A program made the translations under genes and the position numbers. The notes under the pieces are model-generated. The model searched no databases, had not been told where the DNA came from, and saw only the letters and a list, made by a program, of their open reading frames with translations. A stretch of 64,000 nucleotides of DNA from assembly GCA_000004985.1 (NCBI GenBank), contig GG738887.1. One strand, given 5' to 3'. This DNA comes from Naegleria gruberi (Eukaryota). Every line of letters starts with the position of its first letter. Position 1 is the stretch's first letter. Of the stretch, positions 4,584 through 63,925 are shown piece by piece.

Positions 4584-4689
4584 TTATGGATTTTAATAAA
4601 GGAAAATCCTAAAAATTTCGACAAGTTCAATTAAATGAAAAATATTTATGATTAAAATTACAATTTTATTATGAATTTTATTTAAATAT

Positions 4690-22324: not shown

Positions 22325-25195
22325 ATGAAAAAGAAAACCAATTCCCAACCCTATGGTGGTGGGCAAAAGAAGAACAATAATAACAATAACCGCAACAATA
22401 ACAAACAAAAACCATCCAATACAACAACACAACAGCAAACAACAACATCATCTTCAATAATTCAGCAACAACAACAAGCTAATGCGACTGCTACCACTAC
22501 TCCTATTGTTAACAATAATACCACAACTGCCACTCAACAAAATTCCACAACTACTGCTAGTAGCAGCAATGTTAACAAACAAGAAGGTAAAGCATCAGTT
22601 CTTATTGGTGATAAACCATTGGATCCATATTTGACTGAATTATTCTCTGTCTTGATGAGTGGAACAAAAGCTTCCAATGAAATCCCATCTTCCAAGGAAT
22701 TTGACTTTCTCACTTCACATTTTCCACAATTTAGAGGTGCTATGGATGAGTCTGCAAATGCTTTGAAGTTAGCATTATCTTCATTCCTTGGTCAAAAGAA
22801 CAAGTCCAATTCTGTTATGGATGACCCAGAAGTAATGTTTGAATCAACAGTTGATTTACTTGACCAATATTTTGAAAATGTAGATATGGCTCTTGATGAA
22901 ATGGATATGGAATCTAACGCTGATAGTGTCGGAGTGAATCCTTCACAAAGTAATTCAGGTTCTTCTGACCAAACCCTTAAATCAATGAGCAGACCCCAAT
23001 TGAAATGGAACGATGTTGATAACAGAAACATGCCGTTCGTACCAAATTTGAAATCAAAACCTAACGCATTTGTTGCCTCACTCGAAAAGTCAATGAAGAT
23101 TGGTTCCTTAGATGATGATGATGAAGAAATGAGTGGTGGTACTAAAAAGATGGGTGTAACCTTTGAACATAGCACTTTACCTCCATTCCCATTCCGTTTT
23201 GGAGTAGGTAATGGTGTTGGTGGTGAAACAACTCGCCAAAGTTCTCCTCATCCATACTTGCCTGAATTGTTGAGTCTTCAATTTATGAAATCACAAACGA
23301 CGCCTCCTGAGAAGGCTATTTCTTATGCTCCTCTAGAAAACTCACCTTGCACATGGATTAGCACTGTGGAAGATCTTCACAAGCTAGCTACAATCTTGGA
23401 AGGCCAAGATGCTTTCGCAATAGATTTGGAACAACACAGTTATCGTTCATTCCAAGGTTTTGTTTGCCTTATGCAAATTTCTACAAGAAGTGAAGACTTC
23501 CTCATAGATACTCTTGAATTGAGACAACACATGCATATTCTTAATTCCTCCTTCACACATCCTAAGATTGTTAAGGTTATGCATGGTTCCGATTGTGATA
23601 TTTTGTGGCTGCAGAGAGATTTTGCAATTTATTGTGTTAACTTGTTTGATACCGGTCAGGCTTGTAGAACTCTTGCTTTACCTGGTTGTTCTCTTGCCTA
23701 CTTGCTTAAGCACTATTGCGGAATTGATGCTGATAAAAAGTATCAATTGGCTGATTGGCGAGTGAGACCTCTCCCAAGTGAAATGGTAAAATATGCTAGA
23801 GAAGATACTCACTATCTATTATACATTTATGATAGATTGAGACAAGATATTTTCAACACCAAACCCAACACTTCTACTGTTTCTGGATTTGAAAGAATGG
23901 AAGAAGTTTTGGTAAGATCTAAGGAATTGTGTATGAGAAGATATGAAAAGGAACTCTTCTCAGAAACTTCATATCTTTCCCTTATCAAATTCTCTAGAGG
24001 ATGTACAGCATCCATTAGTGAAAATGTTATTCGAGTTTTATTCAAGTGGAGAGATACTGTAGCTAGAAAAGATGACGAAAGTATTCGTTACGTTTTACCT
24101 GATCACATGATTCTCTCAATAGCCCAAGAAGCTCCAACTGAGGTTAGTCAATTGTTAAGTTGTTGTAACCCAGTTCCTAAACTTGTCAGAAGAGATGCTA
24201 AAATTATTGTTGACTTGATAACCAAGGCATTACAAAGTCGTGATATGCCAGAGCCAACATTCTCCACACCATCTAAGATCCCTGATGAAAGCTATATTAA
24301 TCAACATGCCAAACCATCTTTTGAACTTGAATCACCAATTGTTAATCCACATTACAAGACTCCTTCAAGAATGAGTCCTGTTATGAATACTGATGATTTA
24401 TATAACATTGCTGGATGGATTGAATCCAAGAATTATTATCCATCATCTTCAATGTCCAAACTTACATTTTCTGAGGAGGAAGATGAAGTTTTGGAAACCA
24501 TTGAAAATATCAGAAAACACTCCAATGTAAATGTCACTCCAAGCAAGAAATCATCTCTTTTCTTCCCTCCTAGCAACAGTAGCTTTAACAAAGATAAGGT
24601 ATCACAAATCATGTCTTCATTCTCTCTAGGTAATGGACAAACATCCAACAAGCAACAAAACGATGAAGATACATCCATGATGGACAGTAGTAATATCCTT
24701 ACAGACGATCCAACATTGGATGATGCTATGGATACATCCTCTAGCTTTATTAACACTCCTATTAATAACACAAAGAACCCATCTGCACGTGTGACTCCAG
24801 AAGAAGAGCGTGTTCCATTGAGTCTCAACGAAATTTACAAACTTTCTCAAAAGAATAGAAAGAAGAACAAGCAAAAGAAGAAGCTCAAACAAGATTCTGT
24901 CTCTGATCCATCTCCAGCTTATGATGGTGATGATAATGATGATGAAGACATTGTTATTCATCAACCAACTATTCCAACACCATCAGAATCAATTCCAACT
25001 CAAAAACCAGTCGATTTTATGAAAAAGATTGGTTGGTTGGGAGCTGAAGAAGAATTATCTGCTTCAGAAGAAGAAAAGGAAGAAGAAGTTAATGCTTCAG
25101 TTGCTGTTAAGGTTCCAAACTATAGCAAACCAAACATGAATGTTCGTAAAAAACCATCTAAAAATTATGTGCAGAATAGGCAACATAAATACTAA
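22325..25195 (+). CDS. RRP6: Exosome complex exonuclease RRP6 (EXOSC10/PM-Scl100 homolog)
   Basis: A DEDDy 3'-5' exonuclease domain is present (FAIDLEQHSYRSFQGFVCLMQISTRSEDFLIDTLEL, HGSDCDILWLQRDF, YAREDTHYLLYIYDRL). It is followed by an HRDC domain (VLFKWRDTVARKDDESIRYVLPDHMILSIAQEAP). A PMC2NT-like N-terminal region follows an N/Q/T-rich tract. The gene is a single exon. Confidence 0.85.
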   Translation: MKKKTNSQPYGGGQKKNNNNNNRNNNKQKPSNTTTQQQTTTSSSIIQQQQQANATATTTPIVNNNTTTATQQNSTTTASSSNVNKQEGKASVLIGDKPLDPYLTELFSVLMSGTKASNEIPSSKEFDFLTSHFPQFRGAMDESANALKLALSSFLGQKNKSNSVMDDPEVMFESTVDLLDQYFENVDMALDEMDMESNADSVGVNPSQSNSGSSDQTLKSMSRPQLKWNDVDNRNMPFVPNLKSKPNAFVASLEKSMKIGSLDDDDEEMSGGTKKMGVTFEHSTLPPFPFRFGVGNGVGGETTRQSSPHPYLPELLSLQFMKSQTTPPEKAISYAPLENSPCTWISTVEDLHKLATILEGQDAFAIDLEQHSYRSFQGFVCLMQISTRSEDFLIDTLELRQHMHILNSSFTHPKIVKVMHGSDCDILWLQRDFAIYCVNLFDTGQACRTLALPGCSLAYLLKHYCGIDADKKYQLADWRVRPLPSEMVKYAREDTHYLLYIYDRLRQDIFNTKPNTSTVSGFERMEEVLVRSKELCMRRYEKELFSETSYLSLIKFSRGCTASISENVIRVLFKWRDTVARKDDESIRYVLPDHMILSIAQEAPTEVSQLLSCCNPVPKLVRRDAKIIVDLITKALQSRDMPEPTFSTPSKIPDESYINQHAKPSFELESPIVNPHYKTPSRMSPVMNTDDLYNIAGWIESKNYYPSSSMSKLTFSEEEDEVLETIENIRKHSNVNVTPSKKSSLFFPPSNSSFNKDKVSQIMSSFSLGNGQTSNKQQNDEDTSMMDSSNILTDDPTLDDAMDTSSSFINTPINNTKNPSARVTPEEERVPLSLNEIYKLSQKNRKKNKQKKKLKQDSVSDPSPAYDGDDNDDEDIVIHQPTIPTPSESIPTQKPVDFMKKIGWLGAEEELSASEEEKEEEVNASVAVKVPNYSKPNMNVRKKPSKNYVQNRQHKY

Positions 25196-28290: not shown

Positions 28291-30405
28291 TTATTCATTG
28301 TTCGAAGATGTTGATGGAGCTCCACCTGATGTTCTTGGAGTATCATTGTTGCTTTCGGAAGTGGAGGCAAATCCACCCAATAGAGAAGCAAATAAAGAGC
28401 TGGCTCCCGACGAATTACTGGAATAGTTATAATTTGGGGGGTTCAACACGCTAGGTTTTTCGTCCTTTCGTTTAAATAGTCTCTCATCTGTTTGAGAGTC
28501 GAAAACTTCCACTCTGTTCTTTGTTGGTGGTTTGTTAGTTGTTCTTGTTGGTGTTGGAGTAGCTGCTTGATCTGTTCCAAACAATTCATTGTTGAATACC
28601 TTCAATTCATTGTAAAATTTGGTATTTGGTTTGATTATATTTCTGATAGCATAAACTTCCTTGTATGCTTCTTGCAGCTTCTTATTTTCTTCTTTCATTA
28701 AATATGAAATGACTATTGTACTTGATCTACTGACACCTGCCATGCAATGTACCATACATGCAGTGCCTTGCTTTTTAGCTTCATTGATAAACTCGCGTGT
28801 TTCCTCAAAGTGAGATCTAAGGGATGCTTCATTAGTATCTTCAGCAAATATTACCATATACTTGAAATCATTCTTATGTCTTGGTGGGATATCTTTGGCA
28901 ATAGTAATAACATGTGAGACGTTTAGTGATTTGAGAAGTCTCCTAGATCCAGCTGGTGGTGCACTACTCAAAAACAAATAATCTCTAATCTTGCTTGGTT
29001 CTTCGTATGTGTATTGGAATACTATATCATTATCTTCCATATGTTTTTTGATATTTTCTTGAGGTTTCAATTCATAGTTATTAATGATTGAAAAGTTTTT
29101 CAGCTTTTTCAAAAGCATAACCTCTTCGGGTATAGATAATATTTCATTATTATCTAAGTTCAATGTTTCCAATTCGACAAGATTGCAAATTTTTGCGTCC
29201 AAACTTTCCAGCGAGTTGTGTTTCAATTTACAATTTCTAAGATTTACCAGATCATAAAAGTAGTCAGGTATAGCTCCTCTTAATCTGTTCATAGTTAAAT
29301 CGAGAGAAGTAAGATTTTTACAGCCACCAATTTTAGGGAACTCTTCCAAATAATTGTATGTCACGTCTAATCTTTCCAAGTTGGTCATTTTCGAACAATC
29401 AAACATCTTCTTCAAGTCATTTTCGCTCAAATCAATCTCTTTCAAACTCTCAAGCTCACATAACTCGTCAGGAATCTCGAATAGTCTATTAGATTTAAGC
29501 TTGAATATCTCCAGTTTTTTGAGGTTTCCAAAAGCGGGATCAATATCTTCAATATTGTTCTCTGATAAATCTAAATAAACCAAATTTACAAATTCACTAA
29601 AGTGTTCAGGAATATGTGTGATAAAATTTTTGGAAAGCACCAACTCTTCTAGTAGTGAAAGAGTTCTAACTTCTGTCGGAACACCTCTTATCTTATTATT
29701 TGAAAGTTGTAAAATTACCAATTTTGCTTGGCAAAATAATTGAGACCACCCATGTAATTTACAAGAATTGGCATATAGTTCTGATAACTGGCTCAATTGA
29801 CTCATCAAACCTTGAGTTTGTGGAAACCATTCGAATTCGTTATTGCTTACATTTAAAACCTTGAGATTGAGTAAGTTACAAATAGTTATTGGAAATGTTG
29901 TAAATCCACAACCTTCTAACATTAATTCCTTCAAAGTATCTGCCATTTTACCCAGGTCAGGCAAGGTTACCAAATCGTTCTTTGTCAAGTCTAATTTTTC
30001 AAGAGCAGAAAATTTTAACAAATCTGTTGGAAAATTTGTAAAGTAGTTATAACTTAGATTCAATTCTCTTAAAGATGTTTGTAATGGTACTGAACGTTCA
30101 CCAAATATAAAGCTCGATAAATTTGGAGACGAAACAGATATCTTATTCAAACGATTAAAACTTAGATCTAATCTTTGAAGGTTAATTTTGTTGAGTTGAA
30201 TTGGCCAATCTTTGAAATTATTTAATCTGAACTGGACATCGGTCAGTGAAGGTTCCAAAAGTTCAAAGTTTTTAGGGGGAGCAACAAGCTCACTCTTATT
30301 CATCACCAGTGTTCGTAAATTTGCTAAATTTGTTATATTTGAAGGAAGAGCTTGTATACAATGTCCAGTCAAATCTAAATGTTGTAAATTTACCAATAGA
30401 CATAT
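28291..30405 (-). CDS. MAP-kinase-phosphatase-like protein with leucine-rich repeats (LRR plus DUSP; MPL family), 3' exon
   Basis: About 20 LRRs are followed by a dual-specificity phosphatase active site (ACMVHCMAGVSRSSTIVISYLM). An acceptor gatag lies at 30406..30407. Confidence 0.7.
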   Translation of the reverse strand: MCLLVNLQHLDLTGHCIQALPSNITNLANLRTLVMNKSELVAPPKNFELLEPSLTDVQFRLNNFKDWPIQLNKINLQRLDLSFNRLNKISVSSPNLSSFIFGERSVPLQTSLRELNLSYNYFTNFPTDLLKFSALEKLDLTKNDLVTLPDLGKMADTLKELMLEGCGFTTFPITICNLLNLKVLNVSNNEFEWFPQTQGLMSQLSQLSELYANSCKLHGWSQLFCQAKLVILQLSNNKIRGVPTEVRTLSLLEELVLSKNFITHIPEHFSEFVNLVYLDLSENNIEDIDPAFGNLKKLEIFKLKSNRLFEIPDELCELESLKEIDLSENDLKKMFDCSKMTNLERLDVTYNYLEEFPKIGGCKNLTSLDLTMNRLRGAIPDYFYDLVNLRNCKLKHNSLESLDAKICNLVELETLNLDNNEILSIPEEVMLLKKLKNFSIINNYELKPQENIKKHMEDNDIVFQYTYEEPSKIRDYLFLSSAPPAGSRRLLKSLNVSHVITIAKDIPPRHKNDFKYMVIFAEDTNEASLRSHFEETREFINEAKKQGTACMVHCMAGVSRSSTIVISYLMKEENKKLQEAYKEVYAIRNIIKPNTKFYNELKVFNNELFGTDQAATPTPTRTTNKPPTKNRVEVFDSQTDERLFKRKDEKPSVLNPPNYNYSSNSSGASSLFASLLGGFASTSESNNDTPRTSGGAPSTSSNNE

Positions 30406-39396: not shown

Positions 39397-40216
39397 TTAA
39401 CTGGTATAAATTTTTACAATACTGTCAGCACCACCCGAAGCCAGTAAATCTTGTGAATGATGATAGGAAACACAATTAATAGATTCATCAAACTTCTTTC
39501 TATGACCAGGAAGTTCTTGAACACAAGACTTGGAACCAATATCCCAAACTCTTAGAGAGGAGTCATGACCAACAGTTGCAAAGTATAATCCACTACGATC
39601 AAAGGCCACTGAAGTAACTGCCTCCTTGTGACCAACCATTTGACTAAGTACCTTACCACTTGATGAATCATAGAATCTGATCTTCTTATCTTCATTAGCA
39701 GTTACTATGATTGGGAGTTTATCGTGACATGCGAATTGATAGACTAATGCGTCTGTCTTACCATCATCAATATTCTCTGAAATCCATATTGATTTTCCTG
39801 TTTCCACATCAAAAGCAGCAATTTTAGAATTAGTGAAAGAGGCAATAAACTTGGAAGTATCACTTGGCAAGAAAGAAACGCAAGTAGGTGTTCCAATCTT
39901 TGAAAGCATGAAAGTTTTCTTAATTTCTCCTCTTTCATAATCCCAAAGAATAACTGAATCGTCAGAACTTGCTGATAACAGTGATTGATTACTTTCATTT
40001 AAGGAAAGAGACCAAACAACATCTGTATGTCCTTTGAGTGTAGTCTTTAAGAATGGAGTAGCAAAACCATAATTTGTGTATGGATTATGATCCAATTGAG
40101 GAATATCCCATACAATAATTGTTTCATCAAAACCTGCACTAAAACAATGTGATGAACCACATTTAACAGTACAAACTCCTCCTGTGTGACCTCTCAATGT
40201 TTGAATTGGAGTATCA
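39397..40216 (-). CDS. Striatin homolog, exon 3 (WD40 repeats)
   Basis: WD40 repeats are present (TLRGHTGGVCTV.., LKGHTDVVWSLS, MVGHKEAVTSVAF, LPGHRKKFDESINCVSYH). The exon joins at an acceptor aaacag. Confidence 0.8.
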
Positions 40217-40258
40217 CTGTTTCTTGTTAATATTATTCAAATTAAAAATGAAACTTAC

Positions 40259-41011
40259 TTAGTACCAGTGAGTCCAGAAACATTCCAAACCTTTAATGTA
40301 CAATCCTCGGAACCGCTAATCATGCAATTCAAAGTTGGGTGGAATGCAACAGATCTTATAGAATCCAAATGATGTCTAAGAGTATATTTAGGTTTCCAAG
40401 AAATTGGTTGATGGTGGATAATTTGTGGTTGTTGGACTGGCATTGGTGGTAATTGTGTAGGTAGTTGTTGAGTTTCTTCAGTATTCCATGATAATGTCTT
40501 CCTTCCGAAAAATGTTCCTTCCTCTTTGCTATTTGAATTATCTTCATCCTTCCAAGGTTTAACTTCCTCTAACATGTCATCAGGAATTTTAGCTCCAATC
40601 TTTTTCTCAATTAATTTATCAGAATATCCTCTTTGTCTTAATTGTGTAATGAATTTTCTCATATCCTCATCCTCAGGAATCTCATTAGAAGAACTGTTTT
40701 TATGCTTGTTCTTCTTTTTATGCTCTTTTGTTGGTGTTGTAGGCAACTCTGCAACTGGTTCTTGTTTTGGTTTTGTTTCTTGTATTGATGACTCATTTTC
40801 TGTTGTTATTACTGTAGGTGAATTAAAGACTGGTGATTGAATATCAGATTTTGGTGTTGATGGTGTTGTTTCTGTTGTTGCTAAACCAGCATCTTTACTT
40901 GGTTCAGAACTTGGTAATACCAAATTAGAATTCATAGCAGTCGATGGAATATTGTCGGGTATGTCCACAAGGAGGGACATTAAATCTGATGAATCAATTT
41001 CTTTCAAATAG
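40259..41011 (-). CDS. Striatin homolog, exon 2 (linker and first WD40 repeat)
   Basis: The exon has an acceptor ctgtag at its 5' end and a GTAAGT donor at its 3' end. Introns are 51 and 42 nt. Confidence 0.75.
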
Positions 41012-41062
41012 CTACAGAAAATAAGAAAATCTTAATTTACACCGATCATTAACAAAACTTAC

Positions 41063-41607
41063 CCTCTTAAAAGTTCTAAACTCTTTGGTTTTGCTCCGGA
41101 TGTAGTTATACTAGTTGTAGAAGCAGGTTTACTTGGAGGAACATCATTCACTGGTTTTGCTGTTGTTACAAGTGATTCACAAAATGAAATCAAGTTCTTC
41201 TTGTAATCACCATCATTAGTTTCTGTGTTTTTAATATAATCTACAAGTGTTGAATATTTTGATCTTTCCGTTCGAAGAGCAAATTCTAACATTTTGATTC
41301 TACGCAATAAATCATATTGTATCTTTTCTTGACTTTTACGAAAAGCTTCAAGATGCGAAATAGTTGTCGATAACTCTCCTCTCTCTAATTCCCATAACTC
41401 CTTTTCATTCTCGTATTTACGAAATTCTCGTTGTAGAAAATTTATAGTTGTTGGGAAATTTAATTTTTGTAGTAGCTGATTATTTACAGAATTATTCATA
41501 CTATAAAATCCACTACCATTATTTGTTGGAGTATTTGTATTATTAATTGATGAAGAAGAGGTGGGTGATGATACACCATTATTATTGGGTGTGGCAAAAC
41601 CACTCAT
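41063..41607 (-). CDS. Striatin homolog, exon 1 (N-terminal striatin coiled-coil and caveolin-binding region)
   Basis: The motif FLQREFRKYENEKELWELERGELSTTISHLEAFRKSQEKIQYDLLRRIKMLEFALRTERSKY matches the striatin family N-terminal domain. Confidence 0.8.
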
Positions 41608-42990: not shown

Positions 42991-44391
42991 ATGGCACAAC
43001 TTGAATCTAGCTCTTTCAATGCTAAATTAATAATAAATGAATTGGATCGTATAAAGGCTGATTATTTGAAGACTTGCTCCGATCATGGTGATTGTATTAT
43101 TAATTCTTCAAATTCCGATTGTTTAAATTCTTCATCACATAAAACTTTGGTTCAATTTATTGGAGAGGAAATGAAATTGAAACATGCTGTCAATGTGACC
43201 GTTCATGGGAAATATCCACAGAGATTAATTTGTTTGCATTATAATCAAACGAGAGCAAATTTTGAAAATTCATTGACTAGGGCATGTCGTGGAGTAATTG
43301 TAGATTTGGAAGAGATGAGGATTGTTCATATGCCTTTTTCAAAGTTTTTCAATTTTAATGAACCAATGGCTAAGAGAGATTCAGAAATTATTTCAGAACA
43401 TTTCGATCATGTTAAAATTTATGAGAAATTCGATGGATCAATTGTGAATTTTTACTTTTTTGATGGAGAATGGAGGGTGGCTTCATCATCAACTCCTGAT
43501 GGAAGTGCCAAGATGGGATTTTATTCAGTTTCAAAGGATAAAGAGGAAAATGAAAAACATAGACAGGAATCAAAGACTTTTGTATTTGCTGATTTGGTGT
43601 GGAATGCTTTTAATGACCTCGGTTTCAAAATACCACCAACAGAATTTGAGGGAAAATATTCATTTACATTTGAATTATTAACTCAAAAACATCCATTAGT
43701 TGTACAACATCCAGAACAGGATAATTTAATTTTACATGGTGTGAGATGCTTGGAAACATTTTCAGAAAAATCAATTGAACCATTTGCTCAACAATTCAAT
43801 TGGAAATACGCAACATGCGTTAAGGAAAAATTCGGATTCAAATCATTGGAAGATGTTTCCAAGATGGCTGATGAAAGAAATGCCTATGAACACGAAGGGT
43901 TTGTCGTTTGTTATGAAACTCCAGATAACAACGGGTCTGAATCAGTTGATTTCATTAGAGTGAAGATTAAAAATTCTGAATATGTGAAAATTTCACTCAC
44001 CTTATTCGATTCCGTGGAAAAAAGAGAAAACTCCTTTATAGAAATTATTAAGAAGAATGAATCTAGTGAATTTTTAGCTTATTTCCCTCAATTCGAATCG
44101 GCTTTCCACAGATTAAAGTTAGAATATAACTCCATAGTGGAAAAGTTGAACAATGTTAGAGGGAAAATAGAGGGAATAGTTGAGGAACTTGTAAAACAGG
44201 AAACTGACACTATCAGTGTCACAAGGATGAAAGCTCTTCAATCCATTGCCATTCAACAAGCCAAAGATGAACTCAAATTCTCCAAAACGATTGCAGATAT
44301 AATGTTTGGATTATGTTCTGATAGACAACTCATGGTTGAGGATGTTCTCAAATCAATGCCTCTTAAACGATACAAAACTCTCCTTTTCTAA
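42991..44391 (+). CDS. ATP-dependent RNA ligase, T4 Rnl1-like nucleotidyltransferase
   Basis: The N-terminal motif RACRGVIVD..RIVHMPFSKFFNFNEP compares with RP.EKFFNLNE in Rnl1. Motif I is KFDGS (YEKFDGSIVNFYFF), motif IV is EGFVV (HEGFVVCYE) and motif V is K-x-K (DFIRVKIKNSEY). The gene is a single exon. Confidence 0.6.
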   Translation: MAQLESSSFNAKLIINELDRIKADYLKTCSDHGDCIINSSNSDCLNSSSHKTLVQFIGEEMKLKHAVNVTVHGKYPQRLICLHYNQTRANFENSLTRACRGVIVDLEEMRIVHMPFSKFFNFNEPMAKRDSEIISEHFDHVKIYEKFDGSIVNFYFFDGEWRVASSSTPDGSAKMGFYSVSKDKEENEKHRQESKTFVFADLVWNAFNDLGFKIPPTEFEGKYSFTFELLTQKHPLVVQHPEQDNLILHGVRCLETFSEKSIEPFAQQFNWKYATCVKEKFGFKSLEDVSKMADERNAYEHEGFVVCYETPDNNGSESVDFIRVKIKNSEYVKISLTLFDSVEKRENSFIEIIKKNESSEFLAYFPQFESAFHRLKLEYNSIVEKLNNVRGKIEGIVEELVKQETDTISVTRMKALQSIAIQQAKDELKFSKTIADIMFGLCSDRQLMVEDVLKSMPLKRYKTLLF

Positions 44392-44591: not shown

Positions 44592-45965
44592 ATGACTACG
44601 TGGCCCGAACATAGAGTGTTCAAAAGGCTTCACGGAGGAGCCTTTGTGTTGCTAGCAATTTATTGTACATTTAAACGAGTGTTTAGTCATGAAGCTTTGG
44701 ATGCCTTTCCGGAACGTGCCACTCGATTGGATATTTGGATGAAGAATATGTTTTTATTGATAATGGCAACATTGATGAGCTATTATTCGATTAAAAGAAT
44801 ACTCTCGGATATATTTGTAAATTTAAAAGGAATTAAGAGACAATTATTATTTATTATTTTAATTTATTTATCATTGGCATTGTATGGACAAGTTTATTCT
44901 AATATGAGTGGAAGAATGAAATCATTTTACTTTAGAATTTTCATAACATATGTTGGTAATTTGTGGCAAATGATAGCCATGCTATTCCTTACATTTTTGC
45001 TAGTGTTTTATGTTCCGATTTACTACATGATGAGGAAATTGAGTGACAATTTTGAGACAATGAAGAAAATTATATTATTTATTTCAGTAACTTTGTGTTT
45101 GTTTGGACTTTATCATACTTTGAGTCCAAGAGTTGTAATGGAACATTCAGTGAACGTTTCAAAAGGATTGGATCAAAAGAGATACATTAAGATTATTCCT
45201 ATTAGTGATGTACATTTGGGGCATTCAATGAGTGTTAAGGATTTTTCAAATTTGAGTCAGGACATTTTGAATATTGTAAATAGAGATCCAGAAAATACGC
45301 TTGTACTTTTTATGGGAGACTTTTTCACTTTTGAATCAGAATTTAACGTTGCCTTCGAAGATGCAATTTATGAAGGATTGAAACCACTCCAATCCATTCA
45401 CAAGAATGTCTATGTAGCTCTAGGAAATCATGATATAGATCTTCTGGATACTGTTCTTTACCAGCTAAAAAGATTACAAATTACAATTCTTACAGATGAA
45501 AGTTTGGTATTGAAGAAGAAACGAATTCAATTGACAGGTTTCAATTACTTCTTTAAGAATGCTGACATTTTATCTAAACAAGTAGCAAGTAATGCCAAGA
45601 TGGAGAAGGATGTAGATTTAAGACTTTTATTATTACATAATCCTTCTCACTTTAAATATGCTGCTAGTGAATTGAATGACAAGATTCCATCTATTACTTT
45701 TAGTGGACATTTTCACGGTGGACAATTCAGTGCTCGTAATTTCTTCAGATCTCTAAGGATAGGTTTTGTTGAGGCTATTACTGGTCATCCTGACTATGAA
45801 TGGTATGGATTTGATTTTGAATCTGAAACTGTCAAGTCCCTTAGCTCTATTGCTTTGAAACCTTCCAATCCATTACTCTATGTTTGTTCAGGGGCTGGTT
45901 TTTATGGACCTCCTTTACGAATTGGCACATCCTCCGAGTTACCAATTATTCATATCAATTACTAA
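44592..45965 (+). CDS. Transmembrane metallophosphoesterase (TMPPE/YkuE-like calcineurin-fold phosphoesterase)
   Basis: About six N-terminal TM helices precede metallophosphoesterase motifs (ISDVHLG, GDFF, GNHD, GHFHGGQ). Confidence 0.65.
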   Translation: MTTWPEHRVFKRLHGGAFVLLAIYCTFKRVFSHEALDAFPERATRLDIWMKNMFLLIMATLMSYYSIKRILSDIFVNLKGIKRQLLFIILIYLSLALYGQVYSNMSGRMKSFYFRIFITYVGNLWQMIAMLFLTFLLVFYVPIYYMMRKLSDNFETMKKIILFISVTLCLFGLYHTLSPRVVMEHSVNVSKGLDQKRYIKIIPISDVHLGHSMSVKDFSNLSQDILNIVNRDPENTLVLFMGDFFTFESEFNVAFEDAIYEGLKPLQSIHKNVYVALGNHDIDLLDTVLYQLKRLQITILTDESLVLKKKRIQLTGFNYFFKNADILSKQVASNAKMEKDVDLRLLLLHNPSHFKYAASELNDKIPSITFSGHFHGGQFSARNFFRSLRIGFVEAITGHPDYEWYGFDFESETVKSLSSIALKPSNPLLYVCSGAGFYGPPLRIGTSSELPIIHINY

Positions 45966-49798: not shown

Positions 49799-50923
49799 AT
49801 GATGAACAAAATATCTATCGCTCATCTTCCCTACTTTTTAATGAAATGTCCTCCTCCGAGAATTCACGATCCAAATCGCCAACTTGCCATAGACCATCTA
49901 ATCCAACAATGCTTAAAACATTCAATAATTTCCTCCCCGAAACATGCTCAATTATTTCGTTCCAAACTCGACCAATACAATCATATTGGATTAATTTATA
50001 ATTGTTATTATCCATCGAATTTAAATTATCAAAATGTTGTTGATGTTGATGATGCTGGAAAGGCTTGCCAACAAGTACAATTGCAACATTTGAAATTTAT
50101 TACCAATTATTTCTTCTTCTTGTTTAGTGTTGATGATCGGATTGATAGTGTTGTGGAGAATGATGATAGGGAGGCGATGGAAAGGAAGAATTGTTTGATT
50201 GATCAGTTGGTTGAGGTTTTGAGGGTTTATAGAAAGTTGGAGGATGGTAAGGTTGAGAGTAAGGATCCACATGTCAATTTCCTGATTCAAATTATGGAGG
50301 ATTTACATTTAATGACTGGAAATCAGGAGACAATTGATAGATTTGTGGGAAATATGGAGGGATTTTTCAATATTGGAGTGAGGGGTAATCAAGAGAATGA
50401 AACACCTGAAAATTATTTGGAGAGGAGAATTTATGATAGTGCCACTTATGCCATGTTGAATGTTTTGGAAATTACTTCGAGTAGAAATGCAGTTGGGTTG
50501 ATTGGGGAGGATTACAATACTGAACTCTTCTCAAAAGCTCACAGATTGTGTGCTATTGTTTTTTCAATGGTTAATGATTTACTTTCCTATCATAAGGATG
50601 TGGTACTGCCATCAGGAGGAAATTTATTGGGATTGGATTCGAATTTATCGTATATTCAGGTATTGTTGAAGAATAATAAGGATCTTTCATTAGAGCAGGC
50701 AACAAATCAATGTTTAGACTATATCCTTGAATCGAAATCTCAATTTGAGGCCATTATGAAATTGTGTGTAGATAATTGTAACGAGAAGCAATTGGATTAT
50801 ATTAGAGGAGTAGAAAAGCTCATGGATGGAATGTGTCTTTGGATGCTCTATTCCAACAGATACAGACACGAGGAGCAAGTTTATGAGGAATTGACAAAAT
50901 TGGTTGATGAGGAAAAATTCTAG
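49799..50923 (+). CDS. Class I terpene synthase (microbial/dictyostelid TPS type)
   Basis: A DDxxD motif (FLFSVDDRIDSV) and an NSE/DTE-like motif (VNDLLSYHKD) are about 140 residues apart, as in class I terpene cyclases. The gene is a single exon. Confidence 0.7.
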   Translation: MMNKISIAHLPYFLMKCPPPRIHDPNRQLAIDHLIQQCLKHSIISSPKHAQLFRSKLDQYNHIGLIYNCYYPSNLNYQNVVDVDDAGKACQQVQLQHLKFITNYFFFLFSVDDRIDSVVENDDREAMERKNCLIDQLVEVLRVYRKLEDGKVESKDPHVNFLIQIMEDLHLMTGNQETIDRFVGNMEGFFNIGVRGNQENETPENYLERRIYDSATYAMLNVLEITSSRNAVGLIGEDYNTELFSKAHRLCAIVFSMVNDLLSYHKDVVLPSGGNLLGLDSNLSYIQVLLKNNKDLSLEQATNQCLDYILESKSQFEAIMKLCVDNCNEKQLDYIRGVEKLMDGMCLWMLYSNRYRHEEQVYEELTKLVDEEKF

Positions 50924-50961: not shown

Positions 50962-52812
50962 TTACAAGTATTGAAGATTATGTTGTTGAATCTTATATCT
51001 AGAGAATGTATCCAGGGCAAGGTTTGACTTGACAGCATTGAACAGCTTATCGAACAAATCAAGTTGTCCTACACCTTTAACAATAACACCCATTTCCTTC
51101 TTTACAACATGGCCAGCAAGATTGATTGGAAAGGATGATTTTTCCTCCATTAAGAAGGTCTGAATGATACTCTCTTGTTTGATCATTCTCTCATGAGTAT
51201 GTTTAAATGTCTTGTATTCCAATACTGCATCCAAGAATAACATATTTTCCTCAGATTTTTCAGATTTACAGAATTGTTTAAATCTTTCCTTTTCTTCAGA
51301 GTTTAAGAGTAATCTGTCAAATTCATTGTCCATTGAGAAGAGTGAACTGGATTTAGAAATTGAAGAGCCCAACATTTGTGATGAAATTCTACCAACAAAG
51401 ACAAACATATGTTGATCTCCAGATGACATTTTAGATTTGGTGATATAGGCATCAAAATCAATATTCTTTCTCTTCTTTGTGACACCAGTGAATGGATGTG
51501 ACATGAGATCATCATAACTGGAAATAACTTGACTCAAGCCCTCACCTGCTTTGGCAGCCTCTTTCAATTGAGGGAAGATTTTATCGAGAGGCATCTTGGT
51601 AATTCCTTCAACATCCACAGCACTATAACCAAATCTTTCATAGAATGCAGTGTTTGCATGTGAAATAAAACCATCAGGTGTAACTGTCAAGACAATATCC
51701 TTAATACTATTCATAATGGAGGTTGTTCTTTCTTCAGCAACTGAAATTCTTTCTAAAAGCTTTTTCAATAATTCCTGCTCTTGAATTTGTTGCTCCAAGA
51801 GAACATCCAAACTATCCAACATGTAATTAATATTCTTGGAGACAGTTCCTAGCTCATCAGTACCTGTTGTTGAATCTGAAACTGAAACTCTTTGTTTGCT
51901 GTCATTGGATGCTGTAATACGTTGAATTTGAGTGGTGAGTGTTGTGAGACGTGACAAGACTCTTCTCTCAATGAAAAAGATGACAATCATGGAAGCAATG
52001 GCACAAACAACAAGCAATAAACCAATGGCCAACAAGACCGATTGAATTCCCAACAAGTAAACATCTCTTGCAATATCAGTTCTTACAATCATCAACTTGT
52101 TACCATAAATATCATTCACTAATTCTAGAGAGGCAAATCTTTGTTCACTCAACATAGTTCCATTAGTTTTCCAGCATTGTCTCTTTGAAAGAGAATCAGA
52201 AGAGAGAACTTCATAGGCAAAAACATCCAAATTGTCCCAATCAGCAGAAGTTTGATAAACATAAGTTCCATTCACTGAGCTCACTTGTTTAGAATAACTT
52301 GAAACAACTGCATCACTTGTATCCGAAAGTAAATGGAATGAGCAACACAACTGAGCACTATTTGCCAATGCATTAATAAATTTCGAGCTCATAATTCTAC
52401 CAAAAACCAAAACTCCTGAAGTATCTGATTGATCTGTATAATCACTCACAGACAATGGAGATGCAGAAAGCATAACAAGTTGTGAATTGTAATTATAAAA
52501 TCCACCATTTCTAGTATTTGGAGAGTCCATGTTTTTCATCAATGGATGACTTGATGGGAGGTATTGTAAAAACGTTGGAAGTGATGAAATACTTGTAGAA
52601 ATAATTCCAGTTGAGAAATCAATTGATCTTGGAACAGCAACTGTTCCATTCTTGAAATAATAAACAACCCAATTAACTTTAGATGATGTCATGATTGCCT
52701 TTGGAAAGTTTGAATCCATATAATCACTAACTTCATTGACAGTTGCCAAATTATTGGCATATCTCTTGAAAATATCATACGGAACTGTCCAAGCAGAAAA
52801 TGGCAATAAATT
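50962..52812 (-). CDS. Two-pass membrane receptor: Cache-like ectodomain, TM, PAS, RGS domain (3' exon)
   Basis: After the second TM helix (VYLLGIQSVLLAIGLLLVVCAIASMIVIFFI) comes a PAS-like region (IVLTVTPDGFISHANTAFYERFGY). An RGS signature follows (ERFKQFCKSEKSEENMLFLDAVLEYKTF). Confidence 0.6.
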   Translation of the reverse strand, partial: NLLPFSAWTVPYDIFKRYANNLATVNEVSDYMDSNFPKAIMTSSKVNWVVYYFKNGTVAVPRSIDFSTGIISTSISSLPTFLQYLPSSHPLMKNMDSPNTRNGGFYNYNSQLVMLSASPLSVSDYTDQSDTSGVLVFGRIMSSKFINALANSAQLCCSFHLLSDTSDAVVSSYSKQVSSVNGTYVYQTSADWDNLDVFAYEVLSSDSLSKRQCWKTNGTMLSEQRFASLELVNDIYGNKLMIVRTDIARDVYLLGIQSVLLAIGLLLVVCAIASMIVIFFIERRVLSRLTTLTTQIQRITASNDSKQRVSVSDSTTGTDELGTVSKNINYMLDSLDVLLEQQIQEQELLKKLLERISVAEERTTSIMNSIKDIVLTVTPDGFISHANTAFYERFGYSAVDVEGITKMPLDKIFPQLKEAAKAGEGLSQVISSYDDLMSHPFTGVTKKRKNIDFDAYITKSKMSSGDQHMFVFVGRISSQMLGSSISKSSSLFSMDNEFDRLLLNSEEKERFKQFCKSEKSEENMLFLDAVLEYKTFKHTHERMIKQESIIQTFLMEEKSSFPINLAGHVVKKEMGVIVKGVGQLDLFDKLFNAVKSNLALDTFSRYKIQQHNLQYL

Positions 52813-60220: not shown

Positions 60221-60781
60221 ATGATCACTGCTTCTTCATCTTCGGGTGAAAGGAATGAAAAACTTTCATCCATCGCTTTGGATATTAATAATGATAGGAA
60301 TAACAACAAACCTCTCTTATCCTTTACCATCTACAATAATTGTTCATCGTCTTCATTAGAAGCTTCCTTGCCAAATACTGCAAGTTTATTAAATTGTGAA
60401 TTTAGTATTTCACCAATCAATGCTACTGATGAGAACAATCAAGTTACAATGATTGGAGTGGAAATTACACAAGCCAAGTTTGTAAATGTTAGGAGAACTG
60501 TATTTGATGCAATTTTAAGTGATTTTCCTTCGGGTTGGATTGAACCAAAGGATGTGGATCATGTTTTCTTTACTGAACATGAGTCAGTTATCAAATTGAT
60601 GGAAGGAGCTCTTTGCTATGATGATGATGGGTTCAAGTTCTTTTCTACATTGCAATCAGCACCTGTTGATGTAGATTTAAAAGATTTGAATAGTTTTTGT
60701 GATGATCTTTTTGGGTTGAATGGAACATTTGTTCTGTATGATGAATCAGCTCCATTATGTATTAGTTGTAAAGAACTGTAA
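60221..60781 (+). CDS. Hypothetical protein; first of three overlapping same-strand ORFs, probably the 5' part of one large gene
   Basis: The ORF is 186 codons and the ATG follows A-rich sequence. It overlaps the next ORF by 62 nt in another frame. Candidate introns include GTAGAT at 60671 to ag at 60773, and GTGATG at 60699 to ag at 60765. Confidence 0.4.
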   Translation: MITASSSSGERNEKLSSIALDINNDRNNNKPLLSFTIYNNCSSSSLEASLPNTASLLNCEFSISPINATDENNQVTMIGVEITQAKFVNVRRTVFDAILSDFPSGWIEPKDVDHVFFTEHESVIKLMEGALCYDDDGFKFFSTLQSAPVDVDLKDLNSFCDDLFGLNGTFVLYDESAPLCISCKEL

Positions 60782-62333
60782 CAAGTGGAATAGTTATGCA
60801 AGATTGGGAAGTGGAGATATTCCAGAGGCATTCCACAAGTTTAGGATTTATCATTCGAAAATTACTGTCTTGCAAGAGTCTCAGGCCTATGAGCTGATTG
60901 ATCAAAGTGACGAAATCAAATATTATTTAAGTTGTGTTCAAGAGAATTTACCACTCGTCAGGGTTACGCCAAGAATTCTATCCATGTTTACAGAAGGATT
61001 GGAAAAGCTTACAATTTCCAATAGTTTCTCAGAGAATTCTTTGGCAATGTCAGTATATACAGCTTCCTTCTCCAACATTTTGCAATCTCATCCTTTTTCA
61101 AATGAGGATCAAATCATTTCACTTATGAATTCATCTTTAACATGCTACGAATTTCCCAGAGTAGATCACAGATTTATTAGGTCAATTACTTCAAAATGTA
61201 GAAATGGAGTTTTTGAATGTCAAGTACATTTACCTGAGATATCCGAGACTAACAGGTTATTTAACAAGTTAGGAACTGATGGATTTCTTAAAGTGAAAAT
61301 CATTGGACAAGTTCCCTCTGGAATATATTTACAGGGAAAGACCTATTTACCGCTTGGAGGTTCATCCAACATGATGAGGGAGAGAAATATGTATTTTTAT
61401 GACTCATCCTTGTATGAATCTGTGGAGACTATCATTTCACAAATGGGAGAAATATCTATTGATAATTTGCATCAATTATGTGAAACTGAATGTAATGAAC
61501 CGGAGCAAATCAATAATGGAGAACCTGGATATCTCACTCCCTCTATGACTCATTCATTAATTGCTTTGGGCGTTCAACCACTAGTTCTTCAAACTATTTT
61601 TGAAGAATGGTTCAATTCTACCGTCAGTAATTTGACCAATCCAAACTTTTTGCTTGATTTACTAAAGGGAAGGTGTAGGGAAACTCTTCCTGCTGTCCAA
61701 AATCTCTCCGAGATACCAGACAACCCATTTATTGAAGACTTATTGCGACATTTAGTATCTTCCCATTTGCAGAAAGTTCAAAATAACCTCATTATTCCAA
61801 TTGACAAGTCAATTACAACTACAAGTTTAATTGATGAGAATAAGTGTTTAAAAGAAAATGAAATGATGGTTATACTTGGAAATGAATATTTAGAGGATGG
61901 TACGATTGTTCTAGTGTGTAATGAGCCATGTCTTTCCCAATCAAATGTTAAACTTTTCACAGTTAGAAATGACGAAACTTTGAAAGTCAAGTACGAAACA
62001 AACCATTCATTAGTTATTCTCCCAAGTATCCTGAAGAGTGATAGTGTCTTTGCATGTTGGGACTCAAGAATGATTCCAACTCTTGTTTCCAGTCAAATTA
62101 CCAATTCATACCAAAAATTGAAAACAGTACAATCTGAGGATTTACAGAGTCAAATTCTTGACGGATGGATTGCTGTTTCTGACAAGGAAGGCGCAACATC
62201 CACAAAGGCAATTGAGCTTTCTAATTTATTTAATGAAATTAGGAATAGCAACAAGATTGAGCTTCCTAATTGGTTTAACAGCTGTCTAATTCCATCTCTA
62301 GATATTTGGCAAAATTCAGATTGGACCAACTAG
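60720..62333 (+). CDS. Hypothetical protein, middle ORF of the run (537 codons)
   Basis: The long open frame has typical codon usage and no recognisable domain. Confidence 0.45.
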   Translation: MEHLFCMMNQLHYVLVVKNCNKWNSYARLGSGDIPEAFHKFRIYHSKITVLQESQAYELIDQSDEIKYYLSCVQENLPLVRVTPRILSMFTEGLEKLTISNSFSENSLAMSVYTASFSNILQSHPFSNEDQIISLMNSSLTCYEFPRVDHRFIRSITSKCRNGVFECQVHLPEISETNRLFNKLGTDGFLKVKIIGQVPSGIYLQGKTYLPLGGSSNMMRERNMYFYDSSLYESVETIISQMGEISIDNLHQLCETECNEPEQINNGEPGYLTPSMTHSLIALGVQPLVLQTIFEEWFNSTVSNLTNPNFLLDLLKGRCRETLPAVQNLSEIPDNPFIEDLLRHLVSSHLQKVQNNLIIPIDKSITTTSLIDENKCLKENEMMVILGNEYLEDGTIVLVCNEPCLSQSNVKLFTVRNDETLKVKYETNHSLVILPSILKSDSVFACWDSRMIPTLVSSQITNSYQKLKTVQSEDLQSQILDGWIAVSDKEGATSTKAIELSNLFNEIRNSNKIELPNWFNSCLIPSLDIWQNSDWTN

Positions 62334-63925
62334 AAAAAATAGAAAGCAAATTAAATGGATATAAGAAGAATCTTGCAGATCAACAGAAAGAGCAGGATGA
62401 TATTTACATAGTAGGATCCTTATCAATTCTACTCCATGATCCAAACGAAACAGACTGTGATTGGTTTATTGAACCAGTTTCTGATAATCCAACATTCTTT
62501 GATGATCTATGTCACAGACTTTCGACTTATTTCAAACCAATCAAGGAAGAATATCACAAATCCGTTCCTCTATTTAGAATTTATTTACAAGAAAGGGATT
62601 TGAGATTTTTAGAATTGATAGATTTGACCAATGGAGATACTGGGTTCAGAAAAAAGCATCACATGAGATTATATTTAGCACAACAGCCGAAACTCTTGCT
62701 TATTCTCAGAATTTTATTCGATATTATCAAAAAGATTTGTGCTTTCCATGTTAAAACTTTCCAACTCACTTGGGAAGTTGTGGATTTTTGCATTTTGAGA
62801 AATTACATTCACAGGGAAAGACCACCAACGAGAAAGGAGTCAGTGGACCAGGAGAAACAGTTCTCAGACTCTTCTTTTATGAAATCAGTTCTTTCTAAAT
62901 GTTTGGAATCTGAAAATTTTGAAAAGGAATCCGAACTAATCATTGATTTTATGAAATTTTTCAAATTGAAAAATAACATGGAATTTCCAGATAATCTTGA
63001 CGATTCAAAATCCTATTCAGCTACCAGTGATGAAAGAAAACTTGAATATGCTCATGATTTGATTCAAACATGTCTTATCAACTTGCACCTTTATAGAGAT
63101 TTCACCAAGGCAATTTTGCCAACACAAGTAATTCAAAAAACATTTGAGGAATTTAAGAATGTTGATGCTAAACCTGTTTTCAGAGCTGAATCTAGAGATT
63201 TTGTGGATGGCTCTGTATTGACACTTTTTAAAGGAGATTCAGGAGAAAGTCCAATTAATTTCACATTTTACAAAGGTCATGTTCATGCTCAACATGCCAA
63301 ACTTCCAATCCATAGGCCTTCTTTAGAAAAATACAATCCAGAATCTAATAACTTGATATCGCCTATGTATGATCAAAAGCTTTCTAGTCAATTAACTAAA
63401 ATGGAAGATAAACCAGAGAATTACGTGTTTATTATTAGATTTGGAGTTTACTATTTGGTGAATATGCAAAAATCAATCTTCTCTGAAATTACCAAGCCAG
63501 AAAATTCATCTGTGTTTAATGAATGTATGAGAAAGAAAGCAAAAGTAGTGAAAGGTCCCTCAGCAGACTCATTTGCTACTGGTGTCAGTGAAAACGTTGT
63601 GCCTTTCCTTCGTCCAACCGATTCTCCTGCAAGAATGACTGAATATTCAGTCAGTTTTTACAAGAATGTCAATAACAAATCAACTGAATTCAAAGTGAGA
63701 TTGGACGAAAATATGAAATTGAAAACCAAAGTAATTAGTGGTCAATTGAGAGTAATTTCACATACTTTTATTGGTAAAAACAATGATATGAGATTCTACA
63801 TTAATCACTTGCAATATTTGGATGTAAATAATGAAATTTCAGAACTAGTTGACAAATTGGACAAGAAAGGATGGTTAATCAAACAAGGAGCCAATGACAC
63901 AGAAATAGTTTTAACAAGAAACTAG
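62306..63925 (+). CDS. Hypothetical protein, last ORF of the run (539 codons)
   Basis: The frame is open from 62279. The first in-frame ATG lies about 360 nt downstream of the frame opening, which implies a join to the upstream ORF. One candidate is donor GTCTAA at 62284 to acceptor cttgcag at 62378. Confidence 0.4.
   Translation: MAKFRLDQLEKIESKLNGYKKNLADQQKEQDDIYIVGSLSILLHDPNETDCDWFIEPVSDNPTFFDDLCHRLSTYFKPIKEEYHKSVPLFRIYLQERDLRFLELIDLTNGDTGFRKKHHMRLYLAQQPKLLLILRILFDIIKKICAFHVKTFQLTWEVVDFCILRNYIHRERPPTRKESVDQEKQFSDSSFMKSVLSKCLESENFEKESELIIDFMKFFKLKNNMEFPDNLDDSKSYSATSDERKLEYAHDLIQTCLINLHLYRDFTKAILPTQVIQKTFEEFKNVDAKPVFRAESRDFVDGSVLTLFKGDSGESPINFTFYKGHVHAQHAKLPIHRPSLEKYNPESNNLISPMYDQKLSSQLTKMEDKPENYVFIIRFGVYYLVNMQKSIFSEITKPENSSVFNECMRKKAKVVKGPSADSFATGVSENVVPFLRPTDSPARMTEYSVSFYKNVNNKSTEFKVRLDENMKLKTKVISGQLRVISHTFIGKNNDMRFYINHLQYLDVNNEISELVDKLDKKGWLIKQGANDTEIVLTRN

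Follow-up and report, generated by a model that had tools for sequence, protein, structure and literature searches.

Identification of the Ligase Gene

The DNA analyzed here is a stretch of 64,000 nucleotides from Naegleria gruberi (contig GG738887.1), hereafter referred to as the window, and the gene in question is a complete, single-exon coding sequence (CDS) at 42991..44391 on the plus strand, which encodes a divergent RNA ligase of the T4 Rnl1 lineage. The CDS was the sole Rnl1-like open reading frame (ORF) of the window and appeared in the ORF listing as one ATG-started frame of 466 amino acids plus a stop codon. Its product was 100% identical to the N. gruberi "predicted protein" EFC41136.1 (XP_002673880.1, NAEGRDRAFT_51245, UniProt D2VPK1), encoded on a 508-kb contig, and the annotated gene model consists of the same single exon. 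The 466-residue, single-exon reading frame described from the letters alone in an earlier note on this DNA was thus borne out by both the listing and the annotation. The G+C content was about 31-33% across the region, and the composition of the gene was uniform with that of its flanks. Since about 8% of random codons are stops at the local composition, the chance of 466 stop-free codons was calculated as ~4e-17, that is, (1-0.078)^466, and the open frame cannot be attributed to chance.

The gene identification is correct, yet the gene was already known, and its product is uncharacterized. EFC41136.1 is named among the seven Rnl1-family ligases of N. gruberi by Unciuleac & Shuman (RNA 2015, PMC4408790), and the novelty implied by the earlier note did not hold. 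The other six paralogs are EFC42678.1, EFC38327.1, EFC38820.1, EFC38271.1, EFC38139.1, and EFC37058.1. According to the same paper, the species also possesses five Rnl2-family ligases, one Rnl5 enzyme (NgrRnl), and two RtcB proteins, which brings the repertoire to 13 ATP-dependent RNA ligases and 2 RtcB (PMC4408790). The literature search yielded no further paper naming the EFC41136.1 protein and no biochemistry of this paralog. The present analysis adds a residue-level mapping, the homology of the C-terminal domain, the genus-wide conservation of the gene, and the association of its relatives with Pnkp enzymes and with fused domains.

Family Assignment

The Pfam model PF09511 (RNA_lig_T4_1) matched residues 99-331 over profile positions 2-227 of 227 with 106.8 bits (E=2e-30; gathering score, 28.3 bits), and the comparison with this hidden Markov model, which the earlier note had proposed as a check, therefore gave a full-length match. 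PHROG 562, annotated as 'RNA ligase and tail fiber protein attachment catalyst', which is the product name of T4 rnlA (gp63), was aligned with residues 78-463 over profile positions 34-370 of 377 (E=1.6e-31). A family profile built from nine relatives and searched against the Protein Data Bank (PDB) retrieved T4 Rnl1 with E=2.5e-16 over T4 residues 53-368 and a Trl1-type ligase with E=0.004. In a profile-profile comparison by hhalign, the N-domain of the family matched the T4-type N-domain with a probability of 99.5 (P=3.8e-22).

The AlphaFold model of the 466-residue protein (pLDDT 81, pTM 0.73) led to the same assignment. The top Foldseek matches were T4 Rnl1 structures (2C5U, 5TT6, and 9DO4; E~1e-14) with target-normalized template modeling (TM) scores of 0.63-0.65, so that the best match was not to an unrelated fold. 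Lower scores were obtained for fungal Trl1-LIG (0.46), Rnl3 (0.42), Rnl2 (0.37), and the N. gruberi Rnl5 enzyme NgrRnl, whose structures scored 0.34-0.38 over ~240 aligned columns (E~1e-5). Membership in the T4 Rnl1 family, as claimed in the earlier note, was accordingly supported by PF09511, PHROG 562, the nine-relative profile, and the fold ranking. At the same time, the score against NCBIfam TIGR02308, the T4 RnlA equivalog model, was 26.2 bits with a cut-off of 242, which does not reach equivalog level, and phmmer with the single sequence against the PDB gave no relevant match. Because of these two results, the protein is regarded as a divergent family member and not as a close copy of T4 Rnl1; it belongs to the T4 Rnl1 lineage and is not a T4 RnlA equivalog.

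Domain Organization and Catalytic Residues

Residues were mapped on an alignment of 18 sequences, comprising 17 family members and T4 RnlA, the latter fetched from the T4T genome. The protein begins with an N-terminal extension specific to the Naegleria clade (residues 1-52; 42991..43146, plus strand), which was delimited from the AlphaFold model and the alignments. In the model, this extension consists of a confident helix (residues 9-33) followed by a low-confidence Ser/Asn-rich linker (residues 34-52). The ~52 residues are missing from the bacterial, phage, and T4 relatives, and the bacterial matches start at about query residue 53-67. The adenylyltransferase domain (residues 53-328; 43147..43974, plus strand) comprises an Rnl1-type N-terminal sub-domain and a nucleotidyltransferase (NTase) core and was recognized by PF09511, the PDB profile, Foldseek, and hhalign. 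A Naegleria-clade insertion, AKMGFYSVSKDKEENEKHRQESKTF, was located inside the NTase domain at about residues 173-197 (43507..43581, plus strand) in both the alignments and the model; the model confidence is lower there, and the insertion is partly common to two metagenomic relatives, P0016 and P0039. Several internal insertions, in addition to the N-terminal extension, set the Naegleria protein apart from its bacterial and phage relatives.

In the N-terminal sub-domain, RIVHMPFSKFFNFNE of the ORF was aligned with T4 Rnl1 RIASRPMEKFFNLNE, in agreement with the resemblance to T4 Rnl1 pointed out in the earlier note. All the positions that follow were invariant in 18 of the 18 sequences unless stated otherwise, and all the coordinates are on the plus strand. 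Arg100 (43288..43290) corresponds to T4 Rnl1 Arg54, and K118-F-F-N121 (43342..43353), an Rnl1-specific upstream element, to T4 K75-F76-F77-N78. Motif I, K146-F-D-G (43426..43437), was aligned with T4 K99-E-D-G; its K, D, and G are invariant, and Lys146 is the predicted AMP-accepting nucleophile. Motif III, F227-E228 (43669..43674), corresponds to T4 F158-E159. Motif IV, E302-G-F-V-V (43894..43908), corresponds to T4 E227-G228-Y-V-A with E and G invariant, and motif V, K325-I-K327 (43963..43971), to T4 K240-I-K242 with both lysines invariant. Further invariant positions were D148 and G149 (T4 D101 and G102), R252 (T4 R182), and Y331 (T4 Y246). Motifs I, IV, and V, which had been read from the sequence as KFDG, EGFVV, and KIK, were each aligned with the corresponding T4 residues, and the KFDG lysine together with the residues of motifs IV and V superimposed on the ligase motifs.

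In T4 Rnl1, Arg54 and Lys75 touch the γ-phosphate of ATP and are both essential, while Phe76 touches the adenine (PMC6379707). The one T4 site found without a conserved counterpart was Lys119, which corresponds to Ser166 in the Naegleria protein; the alignment column is Ser/Thr-rich, with S, T, M, or N in the other 17 sequences. Lys119 was reported by Wang et al. in 2003 to be essential in T4 Rnl1.

These residues bear on the identity of the protein as a nick-sealing ligase of the Rnl5 or RLIG1 (C12orf29) type, an alternative clade named in the earlier note, which would be suggested by the presence of NgrRnl, an Rnl5 enzyme, in N. gruberi and by RLIG1 being structurally nearest to NgrRnl (PMC4408790, PMC11494293). 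However, NgrRnl is a separate gene (XP_002669268.1; PMC4408790), and its structures stand far below T4 Rnl1 in the fold ranking. The protein studied here has the residues of the Rnl1 N-sub-domain as well as a C-domain, both of which are lacking in Rnl5 and RLIG1 (PMC4408790, PMC11494293). By the fold ranking and the invariant N-sub-domain residues, an Rnl5/RLIG1 identity is effectively refuted.

Homology of the C-Terminal Domain

The remaining part of the protein is an all-helical C-terminal domain of 138 residues (residues 329-466; 43975..44388, plus strand). In the scheme of Shuman, it is the appendage of the NTase core that defines an Rnl clade, and the C-domain of T4 Rnl1 gives tRNA-repair specificity (PMC6379707). 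Because the appended domain defines the clade, residues 329-466 were tested separately. A T4-type C-domain profile was built from T4 and eight Straboviridae ligases with 38-56% identity, and the C-domain alignment of the family included 101 sequences. The two were matched by hhalign with a probability of 94.1% (P=1.3e-7, score 46.5), and the match began at the first helix and ran collinearly through 89-99 columns. In the controls, the best of 60 column shuffles scored 17.6, the reversed profile scored 11.4, and the cross-domain comparisons reached at most 22.5 over 12 columns; the N-domain comparison (P=3.8e-22) served as the positive control. The alignments to PHROG 562 and to the PDB profile both extend through the C-domain. 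A near-invariant family motif, N-E-S-S-E-F-L-A-Y-F (residues 356-365), was aligned with T4 G269-A-S-D-D-L-K-A-M-Y278.

Other comparisons weigh against this homology. Fold searches with the Naegleria C-domain alone did not retrieve T4 Rnl1, and a common fold was thus not recovered for this part of the protein; the fold search with the C-domain model matched no Trl1-LIG structures either. The failure may be due to a Naegleria-specific insertion in the C-domain, which forms a 37-residue helix according to the alignment and the model, to true structural drift, or to model error. The Pfam model PF20819 (T4_Rnl1_C) gave no match to the Naegleria C-domain. Of six other Rnl1-like ligases from non-T4 phages, five were missed by the same model, and in tblastn, the T4 C-domain sequence reached only phages of the Straboviridae type. 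PF20819 being a narrow model that is missed by most of the non-T4 phage ligases compared, the lack of a match is weak evidence against homology. On this mixed evidence, and with a hhalign probability of 94%, we conclude that the C-terminal part is a diverged homolog of the T4 Rnl1 C-domain (~120 residues). The earlier note had described a C-terminal extension of roughly 150 residues. A C-terminal part of 138 residues is indeed present after motif V, but it is no add-on; in the hhalign comparison, it occupies the place of the T4 C-domain.

Family Distribution and Associated Genes

An exhaustive profile search revealed 14,170 cluster representatives at E<=1e-3 and 2828 at E<=1e-30, most of them 350-390 residues in length; a profile search of the named protein database gave 13 matches. 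The bacterial relatives retrieved from genomes belonged nearly all to filamentous cyanobacteria (Microcoleus, Tychonema, Kamptonema, and other Oscillatoriales) and were ~30% identical to the Naegleria protein over query residues ~59-465. Partner genes were counted at 78 cyanobacterial loci with enough downstream sequence, a partner being defined as a co-oriented ORF starting less than 400 nucleotides past the ligase stop codon. A co-oriented ORF of ~282 residues was found directly downstream of the ligase in 77 of the 78 loci (median gap, 143 nucleotides, with overlap in some cases) and, after collapse at 75% identity, in 10 of the 11 clusters. An example of the arrangement is locus L008, one of the bacterial loci L006-L085, with the ligase at 4022-5101 and the Pnkp gene at 5101-5949. 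The ~282-residue product is a bifunctional enzyme of the T4 Pnkp type, with an AAA_33 P-loop kinase and a HAD_PNKP phosphatase domain (E~1e-50). The cyanobacterial ligase-Pnkp pair looks like a chromosomal two-gene cassette for heal-and-seal RNA repair, and no experimental work on it was found in the literature. Ligase/kinase-phosphatase repair systems are reported to have been catalogued by Burroughs and Aravind in 2016, in one of several comparative surveys.

On viral contigs, a co-oriented Pnkp-like ORF occurred within 3 kb of the ligase at 21 of 80 loci. The Rnl1-like ligase of Vibrio phage vB_CoeS_P1 (L092, 78-2034) is flanked by an HD phosphohydrolase on one side and a polynucleotide kinase on the other, and that of Bacillus phage G (L090, 1-1659) lies beside a putative kinase; both arrangements are variants of a heal-and-seal gene cluster.

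Fusions were observed among the eukaryotic relatives. The amoebozoan transcripts P0025 (Pyxidicula operculata, 1244 residues) and P0065 (Cavostelium apophysatum, 1341 residues) each encode four modules in one polypeptide, namely an AAA_33 kinase, a dual-specificity phosphatase (DSPc), an AEP prim-pol, and an Rnl1-type ligase. As predicted from the domain matches, this unusual architecture would join healing, polymerizing, and sealing activities. In four other sequences (P0034, P0081, P0120, and P0133), the ligase is fused, in either order, to a Cid1-family terminal transferase (MTPAP-like_central and PAP_assoc); P0034 is a Pyxidicula protein of 1012 residues, and P0081, of 1490 residues, has an R3H domain too. 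A separate observation concerns P0051 (721 residues), in which an intein with a LAGLIDADG homing endonuclease lies inside the ligase domain. P0106 and P0123 probably bear inteins likewise, judging from their similar length and two-stretch matches.

Across the family, the recurrent partner is an activity that heals RNA ends. The same pairing is seen in T4, where RnlA and PseT repair tRNA-Lys after its cleavage by the anticodon nuclease PrrC (PMC10946426, PMC11494293). HAD-type Pnkp yields 2'-OH,3'-OH ends, which are sealed by T4 Rnl1, whereas Trl1-type ligases need a 2'-PO4 (PMC10946426, PMC11494293).

The partner bears on a further explanation, in which the Naegleria protein is a stand-alone tRNA-splicing ligase of the Trl1/Rnl6 type, similar to the RNLs of Branchiostoma and Mucorales, needing 3'-OH,2'-PO4 ends and acting with a separate kinase/cyclic phosphodiesterase and Tpt1. 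Some eukaryotic stand-alone ligases with Rnl1-like adenylyltransferase domains do splice tRNA (PMC10946426), the kinetoplastids, which likewise belong to Discoba, use a Trl1-type ligase (PMC6379707), and Trl1-LIG structures were the second-best fold class in Foldseek. However, both the nine-relative profile (E=0.004 for the Trl1-type ligase vs. 2.5e-16 for T4 Rnl1) and the fold comparison (TM score 0.46 vs. 0.63-0.65) placed the protein closer to T4 Rnl1. The C-domain aligns to the T4 type, while Trl1 is defined by another C-domain with 2'-PO4-binding arginines (PMC6379707), and the Pfam scan detected no kinase (KIN) and no cyclic phosphodiesterase (CPD) domain in the 466 residues. In the relatives, the ligase is linked to a HAD-type Pnkp as healing enzyme and not to a cyclic phosphodiesterase, and the ends that this Pnkp produces carry a 2'-OH; for tRNA splicing, two RtcB ligases are at hand in N. 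gruberi (PMC4408790). A Trl1/Rnl6-type enzyme is therefore considered improbable, and the distinction from Trl1 drawn in the earlier note stands.

Origin and Conservation in Naegleria

N. lovaniensis, N. fowleri, and a JGI metagenome yielded orthologs with 55-58% identity, and a further sequence, taken from a public sequencing run in the Logan collection, was 85% identical. In these orthologs, the N-terminal extension and the insertions are preserved, and none of the catalytic residues is lost. That the catalytic residues are all kept at 55-57% identity supports the view that the ligase has probably been under purifying selection.

A rough neighbor-joining tree was built from 104 ligase domains. 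The sequences of N. gruberi, N. lovaniensis, N. fowleri, and two further Naegleria-like sources formed a clade with 93% bootstrap support, the sisters of which were the metagenomic sequences P0016 (88%) and P0039 (80%); the contig of P0016 has fragmented, eukaryote-like gene calls. The identified eukaryotic sequences grouped loosely together and separately from the cyanobacteria, but this grouping has no statistical support (7% at the deep node), and T4 was placed far outside. The nearest bacterial and viral relatives were about equally distant, at about 30-35% identity. Because the orthologs of the genus form a clade and the relatives outside it are only ~30-35% identical, the gene is taken to have been present before the Naegleria species split, and any transfer would predate the radiation of the genus.

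This timing is relevant to the explanation that the ORF is a recent foreign insertion of bacterial, phage, or giant-virus origin, or an assembly contaminant, and no functional host gene. Counted in favor of an insertion were the mostly bacterial or viral membership of the family, the lack of introns in the gene, and the infection of Naegleria by giant viruses. Against these points stand the clade of orthologs and its distance from the bacterial and viral relatives, the eukaryote-like contig of the nearest outgroup (P0016), and the location of the gene on a 508-kb N. gruberi contig among intron-containing eukaryotic neighbors with the same G+C content as the gene. Together, they make an insertion or a contaminant very improbable.

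Genomic Context

Upstream of the ligase, a striatin homolog (Striatin and WD40 domain matches) is encoded on the minus strand in three ORF segments (39397-41607). One junction, near 41011-41061, has a canonical GTAAGT...TGTAG intron of ~50 nucleotides, which is direct evidence of nuclear eukaryotic DNA. The eukaryotic nuclear context stated in the earlier note was thereby confirmed, together with the 508-kb contig and the uniform base composition.

On the plus strand, 200 nucleotides downstream of the ligase, lies a gene (44592-45965) whose product spans the membrane several times and contains a metallophosphoesterase domain of the calcineurin-like type (PF00149, E=1.2e-8). This gene was considered as a healing partner similar to CthPnkp and was rejected, since it encodes a multi-pass membrane protein and its adjacency to the ligase is missing in N. 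lovaniensis and N. fowleri; because the N. gruberi neighbors are not conserved in these two species, the gene was dropped as a partner. The N. lovaniensis and N. fowleri orthologs of the ligase lie between HAM1/EF-hand and aldehyde-dehydrogenase/actin genes and are thus nuclear in these species as well. At the ligase loci themselves, no healing enzyme adjoins the gene in N. gruberi, N. lovaniensis, or N. fowleri; a profile search for Pnkp was saturated with cyanobacterial matches. The window contains no second ligase, Pnkp-like sequence, tRNA gene, or Rfam family.

The wider window encodes ordinary eukaryotic proteins, including RPA1-like and Rrp6-like proteins, DNA polymerase subunit B, an amidase, an RNA-dependent RNA polymerase, leucine-rich repeat (LRR) proteins, and others. 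The Rrp6/EXOSC10-like exosome nuclease (PMC2NT, 3'-5' exonuclease, and HRDC domains) is located at 22325-25195 on the plus strand, and nothing in the window ties it to the ligase. An LRR protein with a DSPc domain is encoded on the minus strand at 28291-30396, 13 kb upstream of the ligase; it is of note since the amoebozoan ligase fusions use DSPc, and no evidence of a link to the ligase was found. Beyond the ligase, a microbial-type terpene synthase domain (PF19086, Terpene_syn_C_2; E=4e-12), of a class uncommon for a protist, was detected at 49799-50923 on the plus strand, and a chimeric signaling protein, which combines a bacterial-style CHASE4 sensor and HAMP with a eukaryotic RGS, at 50962-52806 on the minus strand. 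The RNA-dependent RNA polymerase at 60720-62333 (plus strand) is of the cellular eukaryotic type (PF05183) and is probably one multi-exon gene extending over the ORFs 60221-60781, 60720-62333, and 62306-63925.

Putative Function

Taken together, the results point to an ATP-dependent RNA ligase of the T4 Rnl1 lineage that is stand-alone and probably active, is encoded by a resident nuclear gene, and most likely provides the sealing step of heal-and-seal RNA repair; we assign this reading a probability of roughly 75%. From the T4 counterparts of the conserved residues and from the family context, we infer a scheme for Naegleria that covers the catalysis, the chemistry of the ends, the RNA substrate, and the biological role. 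Lys146 would attack the α-phosphate of ATP to form the ligase-AMP intermediate, with Arg100 and Lys118 holding the γ-phosphate, Phe119 and Phe120 placed beside the adenine, and Asp148, Glu228, and Glu302 arranging the catalytic metal. The AMP would be handed to the 5'-phosphate of an RNA, after which the 3'-OH of the other RNA end would attack and the chain would be resealed. The helical C-domain, as a homolog of the tRNA-specificity domain of T4 Rnl1, most likely picks the RNA substrate. The most likely role would be the sealing of RNAs, probably tRNA-like stem-loops, cut by ribotoxin-type nucleases. The predicted ends are 3'-OH,2'-OH and 5'-PO4, made ready by a separate kinase-phosphatase. 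This T4-like end chemistry is proposed because the relatives are paired with HAD-type Pnkp, which leaves the 2'-OH ends that T4 Rnl1 seals, and would be carried over to Naegleria from relatives that are only ~30% identical.

A role in RNA processing or rearrangement instead of break repair would leave the family assignment as it is. Unciuleac & Shuman speculate about specialized repair roles or RNA rearrangements during differentiation for the expanded set of Naegleria ligases (PMC4408790). In favor of such a role, the terminal nucleotidyltransferases of the Cid1 type to which eukaryotic relatives are fused are processing enzymes; an N-terminal extension, insertions, and a long helix inserted in the C-domain are peculiar to the Naegleria clade; and the Naegleria ligase loci have no linked healing enzyme. 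On the other side, the sole strong association that recurs across the family is the one with kinase-phosphatases that heal RNA ends, which is typical of break repair, and the window, having no tRNA or Rfam RNA genes, offers no pointer to a processing pathway. We regard a processing role as unlikely.

Break repair by a sealing ligase may also be framed more widely. It is conceivable, and put forward here only tentatively, that Naegleria and unsampled protists (the sources of P0016 and P0039) possess a cellular T4-style ligase for RNA break repair that does not depend on a 2'-PO4, as a counterpart of the phage anti-ribotoxin pathway. The diverged C-domain, the N-terminal helix, and the insertions could have retargeted such an enzyme away from the tRNA anticodon loop. 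As part of the same tentative proposal, the RnlA-like, Pnkp-linked family might merit a structural sub-clade of its own, which is suggested because fold searches do not recover the T4 C-domain.

The practical value of these results is modest, although the context narrows the prediction to the sealing of 2'-OH ends alongside a kinase-phosphatase. Residual interest lies in the substrate specificity of the diverged C-domain and in why Naegleria retains so many ligases. The pathogen N. fowleri has an ortholog, and mammals are not known to have an Rnl1-type ligase; for these two reasons, the enzyme class could be of interest as a parasite-specific activity.

Comparison with Known RNA Ligases

Among the known systems, T4 Rnl1 (RnlA, gp63; 2C5U, 5TT6, and 9DO4) is both the best sequence-profile match and the best fold match. 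It has the same order of an adenylyltransferase domain with an Rnl1 N-sub-domain followed by an all-helical C-domain, and its residues R54, K75, F76/77, K99, D101, G102, E159, E227, G228, K240, K242, and Y246 are conserved in the Naegleria protein, whose relatives are linked to Pnkp of the T4 type. The two proteins differ in that their identity is ~19%, a serine stands at the position of T4 K119, and the Naegleria protein starts with ~52 additional residues (a helix and a linker), contains several insertions, and ends in a C-domain too diverged for PF20819 or a fold search. In addition, the Naegleria gene is a cellular eukaryotic one and no phage counter-defence gene, and a tail-fibre role is not expected.

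The ligase domain of fungal and plant Trl1 (Rnl6) and the RNLs of Branchiostoma and Mucorales have in common with the Naegleria protein the Rnl1-like adenylyltransferase and its Arg, Lys, and Phe contacts, and they are eukaryotic and in some cases stand-alone (PMC6379707, PMC10946426). These enzymes differ in having another C-domain, with a 2'-PO4 site, and in requiring a 2'-PO4 end (PMC6379707, PMC10946426). NgrRnl (Rnl5) and human RLIG1/C12orf29 are also ATP-dependent ligases of 5'-PO4 and 3'-OH RNA ends with a common NTase core; however, they lack the Rnl1 N-sub-domain and the C-domain and seal duplex nicks, and Rnl5 has an N-terminal OB-like module (PMC4408790, PMC11494293).

The amoebozoan relatives from Pyxidicula operculata, Cavostelium apophysatum, and Flabellula baltica belong to the same sub-family and fall in a loose cluster with the Naegleria clade; their ligases are fused to other domains, whereas the Naegleria protein is stand-alone. 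The cyanobacterial 'T4 RnlA family RNA ligase' (e.g., MEL6492858.1) is ~360 residues long, has neither the N-terminal extension nor the insertions of the Naegleria protein, and is encoded in an operon with the 282-residue kinase-phosphatase, while the Naegleria gene is unlinked. With their Pnkp partners, these cyanobacterial ligases are the closest bacterial relatives of the Naegleria protein, and their C-domain carries the NESSEFLAYFP motif common to both.

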